Positions 42,007 to 61,060 of a stretch of DNA of 64,000 bases are shown in pieces. The notes below the pieces were generated by a model that did not search any database, was not told where the DNA came from, and worked only from the letters and a program-made list of their open reading frames with translations. The translations under genes were made by a program, and so were the position numbers. Each line of letters starts with the position of its first letter. The stretch's first letter is position 1. This stretch comes from Methanotrichaceae archaeon (lineage in GTDB: Archaea > Halobacteriota > Methanosarcinia > Methanotrichales > Methanotrichaceae), in NCBI GenBank assembly GCA_963813075.1, contig CAWEXU010000031.1:96001-160000 (forward strand). The letters run 5' to 3'.

Positions 42007-43130
42007 GATTTCGAATATCGTTGCATTAGCATCTCTGAAAAGGACTACGTTAATATTTTCAATTTAAACTCTCATTTCTTTGTGTAATCCTCCATTATTC
42101 GACATCTTTTTCCTATTTTGTCATCATTTCTTGATACTTTTCGCGTTTTTCTCCATAGCTTCCGCTAGGCAGCCTTTTTGGCGACCTTGCCAAGAAGGTT
42201 GAACAAGTTATAACCGATAGCATTGAACGTCATTTTGACTGCAGCTCTTTCAACTGTTGTTACCATAACATGACCTGATTTGAATACTATTTTTATGACA
42301 CTAAAGCATCTTTCCACAGGAGATCGAATACTGCTGATTCTTTTGTTTCGCAATTCATCAAAAATGCTAAGCGGATGCCCCCTTGCTGCTCTTTTCATGG
42401 CTGCATCGTATCCCTTGGTTTCTGCGCCATGATAGCCTTTATCGCCGTATCGAACCTCGCCCTCGTTTGCTAAATCCACCCGGCTGTCATGGATATTGGC
42501 GACGGTTGTCTCAACCTCCCAGATGAAGTGGTTCTCTGTATCCACTTTCGCATGTCCCTTGTATCCGAAATATGATTTGTTTCCTTTCTTCGCCCATTCA
42601 CCATCTTTGCTTCTTCTGGTCTTGGCTTCCTTCCCTCGTGGGACATCGCTCTTAGCATGACCTGGATCAGATGTTATAAAAGTGGCATCTTGAATGACCC
42701 CCTTCTTCACCTCATATCCTTTAGCCTTGAGCTGATTTGTGAATTCTTCCCAGATGGCATCAAGCTTACCGTTTTTTATCAATCTTTCGCGAAACAGCCA
42801 CACGGTAGTATAATCAGGGATAACTTCTGTTGTCCCTAAAAAAACGCGAAACGATATTCTATCTGCGACCTGAAGCTCTAATTGGGGATCTGATAGACCA
42901 TACAGTTGTTGGAGTATGAGGAGCTTAATCATTATAATAATGCTAATATTTGGCCTACCGCCTCGTTCAGTTCTATTTTTATATAGATCGTCTTCGAATC
43001 GCAGAAACGCATCCCAGTCAACTAATTTTGCCAAGGATTTCAGCTTATCGCCACGCGGTTGAACTTTTTCATTATATTCTTGCAAGATAGAAAAGTCTAT
43101 GAGGGTCCTCATAATATGTAATATGGTCAT
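42007..43130 (-). mobile_element. IS5-family element with transposase 42165..43130
   Basis: GGRP, QLYGLSD, QDATF, YGDKGY, RSPVERCF; TCTGAG direct repeat at 42001 and 43131; terminal inverted repeats not identified. Confidence 0.85.
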
Positions 43131-47484: not shown

Positions 47485-47600
47485 TAACTTTAAATAGCTT
47501 AAGCTTTATAAATATTAAAGAAATCCTTCTAAATAATATCAGATTAGGCGGGATTACTCGATAAAAAAATAGCTGAAATTCCCATGTGGTGGTGTATCTT
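47485..47600 (+). promoter_or_regulatory. TATA-type promoter and short leader of adhesin paralogue 1
   Basis: TTTAAATAGCTTAAGCTT shared with 59581 and nearly with 57415. Confidence 0.65.
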
Positions 47601-47601
47601 A

Positions 47602-54540: not shown

Positions 54541-55120
54541 GCACCCCGCTGCAAGCAGCGGGGCATGTTCGCGCCGTTTGCCTTCATTCGAAATCTAGCA
54601 AATTCATTTGCTTATAGGCTTCCTTTTCTTCAGGCGTTCCTTGTGTTTCAACATAATTCCGTATGGTGTCAGCCATAACACCATCACCTACAGTTCCAAC
54701 ATAACCCCCATCGCTCCAAAATTCTCCTCCCCAAAGCTGTTTTTTTACTTCAGGATACTTTTTAAAAAATTCTCTTGCGGTTATACTCTTTACAATTTGC
54801 ACAATCCTTGAAGGCGAATATCTTGGCGCAGCGCCAACAAAGATGTGAACATGATCGCCATCAGTACCAATTGCATCGAAATCGAAATGATATCGTTCAC
54901 CAATCTCACTGCATATAAATTTAATATAATTAATACGATCGATATCTTGGAGTAACTTTCTTCTATATTTTATACTAAATACCATATGATATCGAATTTT
55001 ATAGGCACAATGACTTGCCTTTTTAACCTCAATCATTTGGCATCGAATATGCCGCTTTCCTTAAGTCGGTTTCCTGACCATCCCAGCCGCAGCAAGCTGC
55101 GGGGTATTCATTTAAAAATA
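54541..55120 (-). mobile_element. tnpA: IS200/IS605-family element; tnpA at 54584..55036, no tnpB
   Basis: HUH motif DHVHIF, LWGGEFWSDGGY, YVETQ; subterminal hairpins CCCCGCTGC-AA-GCAGCGGGG (54544) and CCGCAGC-AA-GCTGCGG (55087). Confidence 0.92.
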
Positions 55121-55422
55121 AAATCTGTCCCTGTCCATCTAACGGTTCATGATCAAAACGATATGGATATCCTAGCCAAAGAAGGCACCTCTGTTCTCAG
55201 AAAGCACAAAATTCTTCGCATGACCAGCGAGGCTCTTGATCAAGACGGTCTCCTGGCTCAAGAGGACCTTGTTGTCCTGCTTTGCAGTTCCCGCAGAATA
55301 ATCCGTCGCGATATCAAGGATTGCAAAGATGTTTTTGAAGGTTACGAGTACACTGACATCGAACGTAAAACGGGTCATTCTGGCTTTTTAACCCAGATAT
55401 CTCTCAGGATTTTTAAAATCGA

Positions 55423-55743
55423 TCAGACTCTACCTTCGCGAGAGGGCTGAATGATCTTTCGGTTTTTGGGAATGATCTCCTCCGCCAATCCTTCTTGCAC
55501 ATCTTTGACCTGGTGAAGATACTTTTTCACAGTGTTCCGGGATATGTTCAGTTCGCGGGCTACTTTTTTGTAGGATTTATGGAGTTCGTACAGGTCTACG
55601 ATTCTACGTACATCTGCCATCGTTTTCACCTTACCGCCCACCTCTCAGAGTACTTGGAGAGGGAAGGCTTTCCTTCTTGGGGGGGTCAAAAACGAATTGG
55701 CGTTTCCTTAAATAGAGGGGTCAAAATTGAGTCGGCGAAAACA
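55423..55743 (-). mobile_element. IS21-family left end with truncated IstA
   Basis: End TGTTTTCGCCGACTCAATTTTGACCCC with an internal repeat; HTH KKVARELNISRNTVKKYL. Confidence 0.75.
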
Positions 55744-56568
55744 TCCTGGGCGCAATAAGACCATCGAGAACACCAAAATGCTTCCGGTCATATTATCCAT
55801 AGCGAGTCAGGATGATTTAAAGCTTAGACTCGATGGTTACTCTGCTAAGGAGATCCGGAAGTGCAAGGTAGCCAGGATACTCCGGGAGGCATATGAGCAG
55901 AATGGCGTTTTGAATCAAGCAGATGTGAGCCTCTTGATGGGGATTAGCGCCGGAACCATTGGCAAGGATATCAGAGAATTCCAATTGGAACATGGAGTTA
56001 TCCTGCCTTATCGCGGGACGGTTCACGATATCGGACCAACATTGACTCACAAAAAGGTTATCATTCAGCAATTTGTTCGGAACATACCAACTCCTGAGAT
56101 CGCACGGAGGACCTCTCATAGCGAAGAAGCTTGTGATAGGTACATCAAGGGATTTAAGAAAGTCCTATAGCTTCATGGCGATGGAATTCCTGCGGAGAAC
56201 ATTGCTTCGGAACTGGAGATGAGCAAATCCCTGGTCCGAGAGATTTGCTACTATTTTGAGTACCGAATTCTTTTTTGAAATTCAACTATTGAAAAAATTT
56301 ATATACTTGTAGTACTTATCTATAATTAGTATCATAAGTAGGAGGTATTGCTGTTGAATTAAAATTGTAAAGGAATTCTTTGCTACAAAGAGTGGCCTGG
56401 GATTTCAGTCGGCTGCAATACATAAGATCGGCCAAACGTTGGTACTGAAGTATCTGTGCAGCAAAAAAGGATATGAGAGCTGTAGCTGATAGATCATATG
56501 CTACCAAATGTAGAATTGCTCTCAGTAATGAAGATAGAACATATTAGGGAATTGGAGGGCGATTAAAA

Positions 56569-57159
56569 ATGAGAAATATACTATCAATATTAGCGTTGAC
56601 ATTTATTATTTCAGTAATTGTAGCATCGGCGAGTGAATTTAGCATAACATCACCAGAATCTGATAAGAAGTATTATGTTTGGGATGAGATACCAGTCATT
56701 TATGGGGATGAAGGTGTGCATGATTATAGCACATACGCCAAGTTGCTTCCGGACGGTACTGAAACCCTTGTTGATGGTGATGTCCTTAAACCAGATATAG
56801 GCGGAGAGTATCTGATAACCGTTCGTTGTGACGACTGTGATGATGAGGATAGTGTGACTATCAACGTTAGAGACAGCCCACGGCCCACCAATACGCGAAT
56901 AGTCATCAAGTCACCCGATAAATATACGAATTATATAGTCGGCGAACCAGTCCCAATCATCTTTGAATCCTTACTTCCAACAATCAGGCCGGACGTTAAA
57001 ATCACATCCTATGTTACCGCCCCAAATAGCAGAGAACGAATAGAGACAGATACATGGGTACCGACGGTGGCAAATGAATATTACGTCATTGAAGTCAAAG
57101 CTGAGGTCGACGGATTTACCTTCATTGCTTCGAATGGGTTCAAAGCTGCAGCTTCGTAA
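56569..57159 (+). CDS. Secreted hypothetical protein with two Ig-like repeats
   Basis: Signal peptide; ITSPESDKKYYV / IKSPDKYTNYIV duplication. Confidence 0.65.
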   Translation: MRNILSILALTFIISVIVASASEFSITSPESDKKYYVWDEIPVIYGDEGVHDYSTYAKLLPDGTETLVDGDVLKPDIGGEYLITVRCDDCDDEDSVTINVRDSPRPTNTRIVIKSPDKYTNYIVGEPVPIIFESLLPTIRPDVKITSYVTAPNSRERIETDTWVPTVANEYYVIEVKAEVDGFTFIASNGFKAAAS

Positions 57160-57444
57160 TAGGAACCTATCACATCAATACCAAGAGGGTTATAAACTCT
57201 TCAGCCTTAAGACCGGTTGAAGTGGACCTTTTCTTTTCTTTTGTATAAATTGATTGGCTGATTTTTAGTAGCCCGTGATTTCGTAATTTACTTAAGCTTA
57301 AAATGTACTAATAATTAAAATATAAATATTTTTTGTTAAATTTACATTATCCTAAATTCTTAGATGTAAGTAATAATTTTTAAGAACTAAAATAAGAATG
57401 AAAAATACAATGATTATAAATAGCTTTAGCTTAGATGTATATAA

Positions 57445-57672
57445 AGTGTCCTTCCTCGGAATGGACGGGTGGAGCAGGCTCAATCAAACTGGTCATTTGT
57501 ATTGAGCATTCACTGGCTGTAGTAGAAATTGCAATGAGGGCCTTAAATTAATGCAAAAGATTGGCATACATCCAATAAAAGGAGGGCTAAAATTCCCCGA
57601 TCCCCAGGCATATCACCTAGCCCCTCGTCCAGTTTTAAGGCCTCCATTGCATTCTGGCCAGACGCCATCTAT
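57445..57672 (+). ncRNA. Candidate structured 5' leader RNA, copy 1
   Basis: Homologous to 59612-59845 with compensatory base changes in several stems. Confidence 0.6.
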
Positions 57673-57844
57673 TTGATGGTTGATTGAAATGAAAAAAAGA
57701 TAGGCTCAATGAAAAGGAAGATAATAAAGAAGCATGCTGGAGGATATATGGATATTCCTAATGTTTCGGCTTTAGCATATAGGTGTTCTTCGAATCCGGG
57801 ATGTGCATCAGATTCATACAAGAGCCTAGCCTTTACCAGATGAG

Positions 57845-59417
57845 GTGATTAATTTGAAAATAAGAATATTATTGGCGGCTGTTGTTCTAATAGGTCTACT
57901 TTTTAGCCTACCTGCATCAGCCCAGAATGCGCTGTGCGTATGTGATGACCCTCAACCAACCCCTGCAAAAGAGTACAAGATACCCATGGCGAGAAATATA
58001 GATACCCTAATCGGTGTTGAGAAATTCAATTCAAGCCTGGGATGTCTTCAAGAAGTTAGATTGACGGCAAAATCTTGCGGTTATATATGGGCTGAAGTTG
58101 ACAACGAAGATAATTTATCCCAAGAGTGGGAATACGTTGCAACATCAGGAATCAGTGTTGTTCTGCCAGAGAGCCTGGGAGAAACACATTGTCAATTTGG
58201 AACAGTCGATGGTCCTGAAACAATACCTACAGGAGCAGATGATCCTTCTGAGCTGCCACCAGGAGATGTATATAATCCAGATTATGAAGGTCCAGATTAC
58301 AGCAGAACTGATTACGGCACTAGAACAAACCCCACCTGTTGTGAACCTGAAGAAGGAAATGGTATTTTCATATTAGATTCATCAGCAGCTCTGGAACTAT
58401 TCAGTGGCACTGGCCTTCCGGGAGATACGGTTAATGTTTTAGTTCAAACAAGTGGTTCATCTGGGTTGACTCCAGGACAGAGTGCAAATGTAGGGTACCA
58501 GAGCTTTTCCGAAATGGACGCAACGATTACTGTCGAGTATGTATACTGCCCACCATCGCTTGCATGCATCAATGGCTCCAAGGTAGGCTGCGATAACGAA
58601 CCTCTTTCTGGCTGGACGATTACCCTGACCAAGCCTGATGGTTCCACAGCCACCGACGTGACCGATGACAACGGCGAATACTCATTCTGCGACCTCCCTG
58701 CAGGCAGCTATAAAGTCTGCGAAGAGACCAGACCTGGATGGTATCCCGTCGGACAGACCTAGCTATGACATAATCTTGGATGACGTTGATAAAGTCGAGG
58801 TGCCTCCCTTCAAGAACACGCAGCACTTCTGCATCAGCGGCTACAAGTACAACGTAACTAACAACGCCGAAGAACCACTTGAAGGCTGGACGATTACCCT
58901 TACCAAGCCTGATGGTTCCACAGTCATCGATACCACAGATGCCAACGGCTACTATGAGTTCTGCGATCTGGCCAATGGTCAGTATAAGGTCTCTGAAGAG
59001 CTGAAGCCAGAATGGATAGCTAAATCTCCAGCCTCCGTTAATGTTGTGCTGTATTGCGAAGATGAATCCGTTGACTTCAGAAATGCGAAACAGCCTAATC
59101 TGGTCTGCGTATGTCCGTTCTTCATCAGGAACGAGCTGTATGGCGCCAGCATGCAAAGAGGTAAAAGTGGTCGATGCCAGCAAAGGAGTCATTTCCAATG
59201 ATCCCCAGGCTCTGTGGTGCTCAATCCGGAATCAATAACCATTGATCCAAAATACGGCACACTCTTCGTCGAAGAGGATGGATCCTTTGTCTATGATCCA
59301 ACAGTTGCCACTGGACGCCTTTATTCTGGCATGTATGTGATGTTCAAGTACAACGCCAACAACGGGCTCTGTGATTCCGTATATCCAGGAATCGCCAAGA
59401 TCCAGCTCAGATGCTGA
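57845..59417 (+). CDS. Secreted Cys-rich adhesin-like protein 2 (frameshifts ~58755 and ~59150-59215)
   Basis: EKFNSSLGCLQEV; two SdrD-B-like repeats; CPFFIRNELY...KIQLRC. Confidence 0.8.
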
Positions 59418-59611
59418 GACGGATCGAACATCAAATTTTTATTTTTTTAATTTTTAATTATTTTTACAGGTTAAGCTCTTCTACTCCCAGATTCTTCAAT
59501 CGACATGTGAAAGAAAAGAACATAAGAGGCCCTTTCGCTGACGTTTTTGCCGCAAAATAAGCGAGCAGAAAGCCAATGACTTTAAATAGCTTAAGCTTAA
59601 TACATATTATA

Positions 59612-59845
59612 AGGGCATCCTTCTCTGAAACCGGACGGGTGTGAAGCAAGCTCAATCAAACTGGTCATTTGCATTGAGCGTTCCCTGGCTATGGCAAATT
59701 GTGATGAGGATCTTAAATGAAATCAGATTATCGGCAAAGTGATTCGATAAAAGGATGGCCGGACTTCCCCAATCCTCGGTTTTCATCATTTGGTCCCTCG
59801 CCCGGATTTAAGGTCCGCATCGCATTCAAGCCAGGAACCATCCAA
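59612..59845 (+). ncRNA. Candidate structured 5' leader RNA, copy 2
   Basis: Between TATA box 59581 and ATG 59864; nested stems. Confidence 0.6.
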
Positions 59846-59863
59846 AATGGTGGTGTTCTTGAA

Positions 59864-61060
59864 ATGAAACCGATAAAATGGATATTACTGGTTGCCTTTT
59901 TAGGGCTGGTTTTTGGCCAGATGGCCTCAGCCCTGGAAACTGAGCAGTATTGTGCTGTGTTCGATAACAAGAGTACTGATTGGGTCCAAACTAAAACAGT
60001 TCCCCAATTCGATCCCAGTCTGGGAACTCTGACCGAGGTCAGATTGACGGCAAACGCTTGCGGCTATCAGCTATTTCAACTGGATAGCGAAGATACCGCA
60101 GCGCAGTGTTGGACAGTCAGAACCTCCGGTGTGCTTACCACGCCTATGCCCAATGGAGATGTATTAACCCTCAACCTCCCGCCAGATCAACCAGAGAGAG
60201 TCCGCGAATTCTGTCTGGATGCTGACTCCGATGATGAGACAGACTTTATTGGAGACGACTCATACAGAGACTTTATTTCGGATTGCACTGATGACGAGAT
60301 GCAATTCTTCGGTGCCGACCTGGCAGATTGGATTGGCCCGGGCACTGTGAGCTTTACGACGACTGCAGACGCCACTACAATCGTAGATGGACCGGGCAGC
60401 TTCGATCAGAGCGTCCGCACCAATGCCGAGGAGACAATCTGCGTAGTCTATGTATATGAGCCGACAAAGCTGTGTATCGATGGCTACAAGTTCAACGGCT
60501 CAACCGATGAGGGTCTTGAAGGCTGGACAATTCAGCTGAAGGATGCATCCGGAGCGGTTATTAAAGAAGCGACGACCGATATAGACGGCTACTATAAGTT
60601 CTGTGATCTGGCCCCAGGCACCTACACAGTATGCGAGGTCACAAAGCCCAACTGGACACCCATTACGCCTACCTGCGTTCCTGTGGAGCTTATCGACCAG
60701 GATGAGACTGTAAACTTCAGAAATATAATTAAGCAAAAACCGCCATGCGGAACTGGATGCCCGTTCTTTATCAAGAATGAGCTGTACACCGCCAGCTGCA
60801 ATGAGGTAAAAGTGGTCGATGCCAGCAAAGGAATCCTGGCCAATGATCTTAAAGGTTCAATAGTGCTTGATCCCGAGTCAATAACCATCGATCCCAAGTA
60901 CGGATCTATTGAGGTCTATGAGGATGGAGCCTTCGTCTATGATCCGACGGGAGCTACGGGGCTTTATTCCGGCGTCTATGTGATATTCAAGTACAACGCT
61001 AACAACGGATTCTGTGATGCCAAGTATTTGGGTATTGCCAAGATCCAGATCAGATGCTGA
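59864..61060 (+). CDS. Secreted Cys-rich adhesin-like protein 3
   Basis: MKPIKWILLVAFLGLVFGQ; PQFDPSLGTL; one SdrD-B-like repeat; KIQIRC end. Confidence 0.85.
   Translation: MKPIKWILLVAFLGLVFGQMASALETEQYCAVFDNKSTDWVQTKTVPQFDPSLGTLTEVRLTANACGYQLFQLDSEDTAAQCWTVRTSGVLTTPMPNGDVLTLNLPPDQPERVREFCLDADSDDETDFIGDDSYRDFISDCTDDEMQFFGADLADWIGPGTVSFTTTADATTIVDGPGSFDQSVRTNAEETICVVYVYEPTKLCIDGYKFNGSTDEGLEGWTIQLKDASGAVIKEATTDIDGYYKFCDLAPGTYTVCEVTKPNWTPITPTCVPVELIDQDETVNFRNIIKQKPPCGTGCPFFIKNELYTASCNEVKVVDASKGILANDLKGSIVLDPESITIDPKYGSIEVYEDGAFVYDPTGATGLYSGVYVIFKYNANNGFCDAKYLGIAKIQIRC

Follow-up and report, generated by a model that had tools for sequence, protein, structure and literature searches.

A candidate folded leader of surface-protein genes in a Methanothrix-like archaeon, partly the relic of a short upstream gene

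Within a 64,000-nucleotide stretch of the genome of a Methanotrichaceae archaeon (GenBank assembly GCA_963813075.1, contig CAWEXU010000031.1, positions 96,001 to 160,000 of the forward strand; this whole stretch, numbered from its first letter, is called the window), two genes for predicted surface proteins are each preceded by a copy of the same leader, which an earlier note on this DNA had proposed to be a novel multi-stem RNA. Our analysis indicates that the leader is real, narrow in range and partly explained as the relic of a protein-coding gene, and that it is probably functional. The reading that we favour, to which we give about even chances, is that a gene relic has been exapted and acts as a folded, post-transcriptional leader of surface-protein genes. 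The structured part that precedes both genes is called domain 1, and a further segment that follows it in copy 1 is called domain 2. The features concerned are as follows:

57414..57422, + strand: TATA-like box of copy 1, TTATAAATA
59581-59588, + strand: TATA-like box of copy 2, TTTAAATA
59581..59600, + strand: TATA-like box of copy 2 together with a palindrome, TTAAGCTTAA
57445..57688, + strand: structured leader copy 1 (domain 1), with a start predicted from the TATA spacing; 235.9 bits with the covariance model, as a member of its training set
59612..59863, + strand: structured leader copy 2 (domain 1), abutting gene 2, with no domain 2
57854..59417, + strand: surface gene 1, choice-of-anchor E / SdrD-B, interrupted in the assembly by a stop at 58760-58762 and later frame breaks
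59864..61060, + strand: surface gene 2, choice-of-anchor E / SdrD-B, 398 aa (NF033208, E 9e-22; PF17210)
47489..47601, + strand: short paralogous promoter and leader (leader 47517-47601), with the inner segment kept and both outer arms absent

Leader copies, homologues and RNA contigs

Both copies follow the same TATA-like element, as the earlier note described, and they are 72.7% identical over 300 nt (E 1.8e-33); no third full copy was found in the 2.71-Mb, 83%-complete host genome. Homologues came from genome G022 (three copies), genome G090 and 13 metagenome loci found by their hairpin pattern, which left 15 sequences after removal of duplicates. A second set, of 16, consists of these plus the copies in G081 and G023 (132.6 bits, outside the training set), minus the near-duplicate L029. 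The covariance model matches 5 of the 105 genomes of the family, all in one genus, as well as metagenomes, and gave no match outside the genus among 150 genomes of the class (0 of the 76 in other families).

The domains encoded downstream of both copies are those of secreted proteins with choice-of-anchor E (NF033208) and SdrD-B/SpaA, which suggest, from sequence, the label ‘adhesin’. The association that the earlier note had seen with adhesin-type genes extends to the homologues: 15 of the 16 precede a choice-of-anchor E-type surface gene, that is, all 15 with gene-length DNA downstream, and in the sixteenth (G023) the contig ends just after the start of a matching gene.

Nested imperfect inverted repeats, and a short form that lacks both arms, might also be expected of a mobile, invertible or spliced element, such as a miniature inverted-repeat transposable element (MITE), a phase-variation switch or an archaeal intron. 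We consider this barely credible, since all 16 copies have the same orientation and stand only before one gene family, with the same promoter. A MITE should have copies dispersed over unrelated sites, but none was found away from choice-of-anchor E genes, and there is no other copy in genome G000. The 22-mer of hairpin (a), described below, had no match in viral contigs, and a degenerate leader pattern had none in the genome contig collection. By inspection, there is neither a target-site duplication nor a bulge-helix-bulge, and the RNA contigs contain no joint at which the strand changes.

Between divergent copies, identity in the 60 nt preceding the leader is for the most part 65-83%, and the DNA upstream of the promoter is near the aligner’s random (shuffled) baseline of 0.60. 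Just 3′ of the TATA box (59591-59600) lies a palindrome, TTAAGCTTAA, whose counterpart in the promoters of the G022 copies (L002, L004 and L005) is TTAGATCTAA; such a symmetric change fits a transcription-factor site.

RNA-library contigs were mapped from four runs of four studies, out of 20 runs listed; such contigs give neither strand nor ends and may contain DNA. The leader of copy 2 is covered in all four runs and the leader body of copy 1 in three, and the promoter bins 57100-57432 and 59431-59541 are empty in all four. Among the pieces listed, the earliest contig starts are 57463 in copy 1 (contigs 57463-57657 and 57496-57692) and 59620 in copy 2, where one contig (59661-59976) spans the leader and the gene. 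These starts fall slightly inside the 5′ ends predicted for the leaders, a weak hint that the leaders are transcribed. Within copy 2, two skips are consistent with divergent paralogues, as the loose ends continue as homologous leader, and the four runs contain no sign of processing or splicing, nor of inversion or removal of an arm. The earlier suggestion of a cis-regulatory or processed RNA therefore stands in part: the lack of an Rfam match, the conservation and the sense-strand fold described below favour it, and the contigs lend nothing to processing.

Fold and conservation of domain 1

The helices discussed in this section are:

57478..57507, + strand: hairpin (a), copy 1; 11 bp, a variable bulged base and the invariant loop CTGGTCA
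59650-59679, + strand: hairpin (a), copy 2
57513-57518 with 57656-57661, + strand: stem (b), copy 1
59684-59690 with 59829-59835, + strand: stem (b), copy 2
57530-57547 with 57634-57651, + strand: long-range stem (c), copy 1
59700-59718 with 59806-59824, + strand: stem (c), copy 2
57463..57469, + strand: GGACGGG strand, copy 1, whose partner is either the 5′ GTCC (local hairpin) or CTCGTCC at 57624-57630
59633-59639 with 59797-59803, + strand: crossing helix, copy 2
57664..57680, + strand: terminal hairpin GCCATC/GATGGT, copy 1, over the ribosome-binding region of the next ATG
59837-59851, + strand: terminal hairpin, copy 2

Pairing was scored stem by stem on the 15 homologues, and an unbiased helix scan was also run; the counts of pair changes treat the changes without a tree, and the sequences are related. 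Stems (a) to (c), which had been drawn from the two window copies alone, persist in this wider set, with 98.8%, 82.6% and 88.3% of cells paired, respectively, and with 5 of the 18 pairs of stem (c) changed on both sides. Within stem (c), the intact genes described in the next section and the G081 copy have TCCAA where the window-type copies have TTTAA, which turns two A-C mismatches into A-U pairs. Stem (d) forms in both window copies but reaches only 67.9% of cells overall; its 5′ arm is absent from the G022 copies, and the same deletion occurs in the G090 copy. Stem (e) proved weak and dependent on register. The proposed closing stem (f) found no support. Instead, the helix scan paired GGACGAG with CTCGTCC (7 bp, 95.7% of cells, no two-sided change), a crossing helix that is either pseudoknot-like or an alternative, and CCATC, the supposed 3′ arm of stem (f), pairs locally with the GGTGGT ribosome-binding region. 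This region, in the terminal hairpin, has a predicted unpaired probability of 0.25-0.51 across 10 copies.

The set of nested inverted repeats exceeds chance. The longest conserved helix measures 12 bp when G-U pairs are allowed and 7 bp with A-C, and 12 bp was reached by none of 200 block-shuffled alignments. The consensus fold has -39.1 kcal/mol on the sense strand and -24.4 on the antisense strand, compared with -12.1 ± 2.9 for 60 block-shuffled alignments (structure conservation index 0.57); the single-copy folding z-scores of the two window copies are modest (-1.74 and -1.13). The percentage of paired cells was equalled by 5 of 500 shuffles. The contention that sequence changes preserve pairing holds only in part: 95 of 500 shuffles did as well on whole-structure covariation, and 71 of 500 on the number of pairs with two-sided changes, so the covariation of domain 1 is still not established with 15 sequences. 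The ratio of G-U to A-C is 29:11 in cells; in distinct pair types it is 14:10 (p 0.27) or 20:14, neither of which is significant.

Hairpin (a) shows no covariation because it is invariant in all 14 window-type copies, apart from the bulged base, which had been taken for a pyrimidine and may also be A. A 22-nt run within it is invariant in the six copies that were found in genomes, and thus not selected by pattern (rough P about 2e-6, four lineages). The invariance of both arms and spacer, with no compensatory change, would also be expected under DNA-level control, in which a transcription factor would bind hairpin (a) as an inverted-repeat operator, about 35-65 bp downstream of the start, and the rest is relic; the presence of a further palindrome just 3′ of the TATA box agrees with this. 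We nevertheless judge such an operator unlikely, since one of the arms contains an additional base that varies freely, which suits the bulge of a single-stranded hairpin, and since it would leave stem (c), the crossing helix and the strand asymmetry unexplained.

As to known RNA families, the earlier note recognised none, and Rfam agrees: it has no match in the window, none over either copy at E up to 10, and the best match of Rfam 15 at eight homologous loci was ssnA, with 23.5 bits against a threshold of 37.3. Likewise, no published description of the leader was found in the literature searched, which lay outside subscription journals and supplements. Likenesses to a cobalamin riboswitch, hammerhead, C/D box, RNase P, attC and dif were considered and dropped, as they have no Rfam support and their motifs are not conserved in the alignment.

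Domain 1 does contain mutually exclusive helices, and these could belong to a ligand-sensing riboswitch or an RNA thermometer in which the 5′ hairpin competes with the crossing helix, and the loop CTGGTCA with stem (b), to switch access to the ribosome-binding site. The invariant loop, the 0.93 identity of the segment TTCCCCRAT, the terminal hairpin over the Shine-Dalgarno (SD) sequence, the position ahead of a consistent gene class and the weak hints of transcription would all suit such a role. However, the range is very narrow, the coding origin is recent, Rfam gives no match, the conserved loop is not kept in G081 and G023, no computed link connects the alternative helices of domain 1 to access to the SD, and there is no sign of ligand sensing, so we regard this role as quite improbable.

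Domain 1 is more conserved than the synonymous sites of the adjacent genes, a difference to which gene conversion among paralogues could contribute. Its identity is 0.66-0.84 among divergent window-type copies (0.59-0.69 for the G081 copy), compared with mostly 0.5-0.7 at 4-fold synonymous sites, of which there are few per pair, in genes whose proteins are 29-57% identical; in the G022-like group, the corresponding figures are 0.90-0.98 and 0.74-0.90. Among nine lineage representatives, column identity is 0.87 at paired positions, 0.69 at unpaired positions (a contrast inflated because the helices were picked from the same sequences) and 0.58 in the middle of domain 2. The old reading frame in domain 1 has stops, shifts and no third-position excess, and the constraint is therefore not on a peptide.

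The short upstream gene and domain 2

The choice-of-anchor E domain family is present in 21 of the 105 family genomes, often as a gene pair, in which a single-domain gene of about 205 aa that ends in VCVTYTYEPxGS is followed by a long gene, whose start overlaps the stop of the first or lies within 17 nt of it. The short first gene is intact in G000 (C5), G022, G099 and G090, frameshifted at full length in G000 (C30:294600-295500) and reduced to remnants in G000 (C4 and C30:291330), L074 and L075. The series in G000, G022 and G090 shows that this gene decayed repeatedly. The structure predicted for an intact short protein (L034, G000 C5:161037-161528) is elongated and all-beta after a signal helix (pLDDT 86.5); this model has no useful match in the PDB (TM at most 0.33 among the matches listed), and its matches in the Atlas are under 0.9.

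The segment of copy 1 that is homologous to this gene is:

57566..57688, + strand: 3′ part of domain 1, with homology to the 3′ end of the short choice-of-anchor E coding sequence

When a DNA profile was made from five intact short genes and the full-length pseudogene alone, it matched the leaders of G081 and G023 over their last 130 nt (E 1.4e-9 and 2.9e-9). A profile of the 3′ half of nine window-type leaders, with G081 and G023 excluded, matches the same 127 nt of these two (E about 1e-12), and the collinear match runs through KVCxT and EP to the SD. On this sequence evidence, a two-step link shows the leader 3′ half to descend from the coding 3′ end (VCVTYTYEP) of the short upstream gene, an origin that the earlier note had overlooked; the direct match between window copies and intact genes is not significant, and only the link via G081 and G023 holds. 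No source could be traced for the 5′ half, including hairpin (a): the best segments, in the untranslated region (UTR) and start region and in the FDPGLG motif region, have scores that 69 of 200 and 39 of 200 shuffles also reach in the comparison with the intact gene or its UTR (nhmmer E at least 0.47).

In intact short genes, the EPxGS end encodes a local hairpin, GAGCC...GGCTC, just 5′ of the next gene’s SD, with matching two-sided changes at several loci (G000 C5 and C30; L067, L041, L043 and L074). In the relics, the partner of the GAGCC strand is not local but distant.

The short paralogue in the window keeps the inner segment of the leader, with a local score of 46 against a shuffled maximum of 33 (54 against 29 for its G090 orthologue), and the loss of its outer arms had been noticed correctly. 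We take it to have arisen by deletion, since intact genes do have the 3′ arm that it lacks. In contrast to domain 1, the short leader is 83% identical between the two orthologues, while the 11 4-fold sites scored for them show no difference at all.

As much of the sequence is a protein-coding relic, part of the similarity among leaders needs no RNA function. The whole leader could thus be a functionless pseudogene relic that is carried along with the promoter and homogenised by gene conversion among tandem paralogues, an explanation that we hold possible, though doubtful. Template-switch correction of quasi-palindromes could sharpen inverted repeats in such a relic. Besides the coding origin of the 3′ half, the existence of many other decayed first genes that share no motif agrees with this explanation, as do the insignificant covariation of domain 1 and the survival of the short form in two species. 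Moreover, the copy 2 leader is 82% identical to the L023 leader, although the proteins are only 32% identical, which fits the exchange of a promoter-leader block. However, conversion predicts even similarity, whereas we see an invariant 22-nt run and a difference between paired and unpaired columns. Correction at the DNA level would not be expected to yield a preference for the sense strand with G-U pairs, and neutrality also sits poorly with the excess of domain 1 conservation over 4-fold sites and with the open mini-ORF (open reading frame) and covarying stem of domain 2. The features of domain 2 are:

57689..57853, + strand: domain 2, a second gene relic, with a mini-ORF inside a long-range stem
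57701-57707 with 57822-57828, + strand: domain 2 long-range stem, TAGGCTC with GAGCCTA
57842..57849, + strand: ribosome-binding site of gene 1, GAGGTGAT, complementary to the 16S tail GGATCACCTCCT

In 14 of the first 15 homologues, the exception being window copy 2, the leader and the TTG start of the gene lie about 165 nt apart, and the domain in between had escaped the earlier note. The 3′ part of this domain matches intact gene ends at four loci (E 3e-4 to 5e-3), and its 5′ end has an SD-like GGTGGTG and an ATG. In 11 of 13 sequences (L029 left out), the mini-ORF runs on for 43-56 codons, with the stop at -36 to +1 of the TTG and a 4-nt overlap of stop and next start in 4 of the 13; shuffles reach this length in 3-11% of cases per sequence, and the 13 sequences are related and thus not independent trials. 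Its peptide is poorly conserved (39% mean column identity). An hhalign comparison of the peptides with the intact proteins gave a probability of 2.5% over 11 columns, at the VCxTY end only, and two of seven peptides occur as called proteins, both singletons. In general, domain 2 fits an SD-led, open upstream ORF that ends at or near the next start. The window’s first-ATG ORF does not, while a second ATG at 57709 gives a 44-codon alternative that ends 13 nt short of the TTG.

The long-range stem of domain 2 joins codons 3-7 of the mini-ORF to a strand just before the SD. It is paired in 91.8% of cells, and its covariation was equalled by 0 of 500 shuffles, in a test that relatedness alone can pass in 5-25% of trials. 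A further two-sided change, GCTCG/CGAGC, is found in L070, outside the tested alignment. At this locus (G090:C126, 616-752), the leader consists of domain 2 only, with a different promoter, and the outer stem is kept by the two-sided change. An alternative partner for the anti-SD strand is the SD itself, with pairing possible in 62 of 63 cells, partly because its 5′ partner in the stem resembles an SD. When the first 30 nt are masked, the predicted occlusion of the SD increases by at least 0.18 in 6 of 11 sequences.

Possible path from gene to leader, and its meaning

Under the reading that we favour, the starting point would be the arrangement seen in sister loci, with a promoter, a short gene of about 205 aa and a long gene, and the first of these genes would then have decayed. 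In one clade, the remnant would have shrunk to about 250 nt and fold back on itself through stems (b) and (c) and the crossing 7-bp helix. Invariant hairpin (a) would be recognised through its sequence, most likely by a protein, and the terminal hairpin is predicted to cover part of the ribosome-binding site. The leader is likely to be transcribed and maintained by selection as a folded RNA, and would work post-transcriptionally, making the message more stable and controlling access to the ribosome-binding site. In domain 2, a second relic would have been kept as an open mini-ORF that ends at the start of the long gene. In silico, its anti-SD strand can pair either with mini-ORF codons 3-7 or with the SD; the passage of ribosomes over the mini-ORF would thus determine how often initiation occurs at the TTG.

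A bolder version of this account is that a coding gene can be followed on its way to a regulatory RNA, with all stages in one archaeal genus: the intact gene, the frameshifted gene, the mini-ORF with a covarying stem, and a fully non-coding leader that has several stems, including a crossing helix and an invariant hairpin. The end product would be a new conformational switch for the surface proteins of acetoclastic methanogens. We offer this version tentatively and consider it rather unlikely.

Several results weigh against a functional leader. Individual folding z-scores range from +0.3 to -4.3, and 5 of 11 are weaker than -1. Neither the whole-structure covariation of domain 1 nor the ratio of G-U to A-C pair types is significant, and the paired-column contrast and the domain 2 covariation are subject to the biases given above, as are the RNA contigs. 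Hairpin (a) is not kept in G081 and G023, and both orthologues have stem-breaking changes. The structure is dispensable in the short paralogue, which occurs in two species, and only the 5 genomes mentioned carry the leader. In the window itself, the mini-ORF is frameshifted to 4 codons and surface gene 1 is interrupted. The breakage of gene 1 may partly be strain-specific or an assembly error, because RNA contigs from three studies carry one-base indels relative to the assembly near 59151 and 59204.

Four known systems invite comparison. The S-layer slpA mRNAs of Lactobacillus have long, stabilising 5′ UTRs (PMC3666127), and they resemble our case in that a long folded leader on a surface-protein message has a proposed post-transcriptional role. 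No sequence relationship is expected, however, and here the host is archaeal and half of the leader or more is what remains of coding sequence. The leader’s length is ordinary, because 24% of the mRNAs of Methanolobus psychrophilus have UTRs over 150 nt (PMC5378194), and 5′ UTR processing in methanogens stabilises transcripts and activates translation (PMC5499594); in the parts available, these two papers describe no conserved multi-stem motif for choice-of-anchor E genes. Translational coupling can operate through overlapping stop and start or through long-range structure melted by an upstream ORF (PMC6728339). Domain 2 is similar in that its ORF ends at or just before the next start and contains a strand able to pair with the downstream SD, but that ORF is a shrunken relic with a barely conserved peptide, and the parallel covers domain 2, not domain 1. 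The fourth system is the NF033208 pair of short and long genes, the apparent source of the 3′ half of both domains; compared with it, domain 1 has no conserved start or open frame, and domain 2 keeps about 50 codons.

As for gene 2, the 3′ half of copy 2 (59717-59863) is free of stops and in frame with it, and gene callers therefore add 49 residues to its protein; this extension is probably a mis-called start. The surface-protein gene cluster of the window also holds a DDE transposase and two DUF1670 fragments (42165-43130 and 54986-56170), with PKD, Big_9 and PAN domains nearby. In G022 (locus L007, 8257-9311), an IS21-family transposase in two pieces lies between the second and third leader-gene units. 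The host genome contains mcrA and tandem acetyl-CoA synthetase genes and, at 83% completeness, gave no match to ackA; this combination fits a Methanothrix-like acetoclastic methanogen, the genus being suggested by general knowledge of the pathway.

Even if the leader is neutral, it illustrates that conserved ‘stems’ ahead of paralogous genes can be what is left of a gene that once lay upstream. If it is functional, it would be a structured cis-regulatory RNA whose descent from coding sequence is traceable in a prokaryote and whose intermediates are open to direct comparison, and it would provide a handle on the control of surface proteins in the Methanothrix-like methanogens of sludge and granules.

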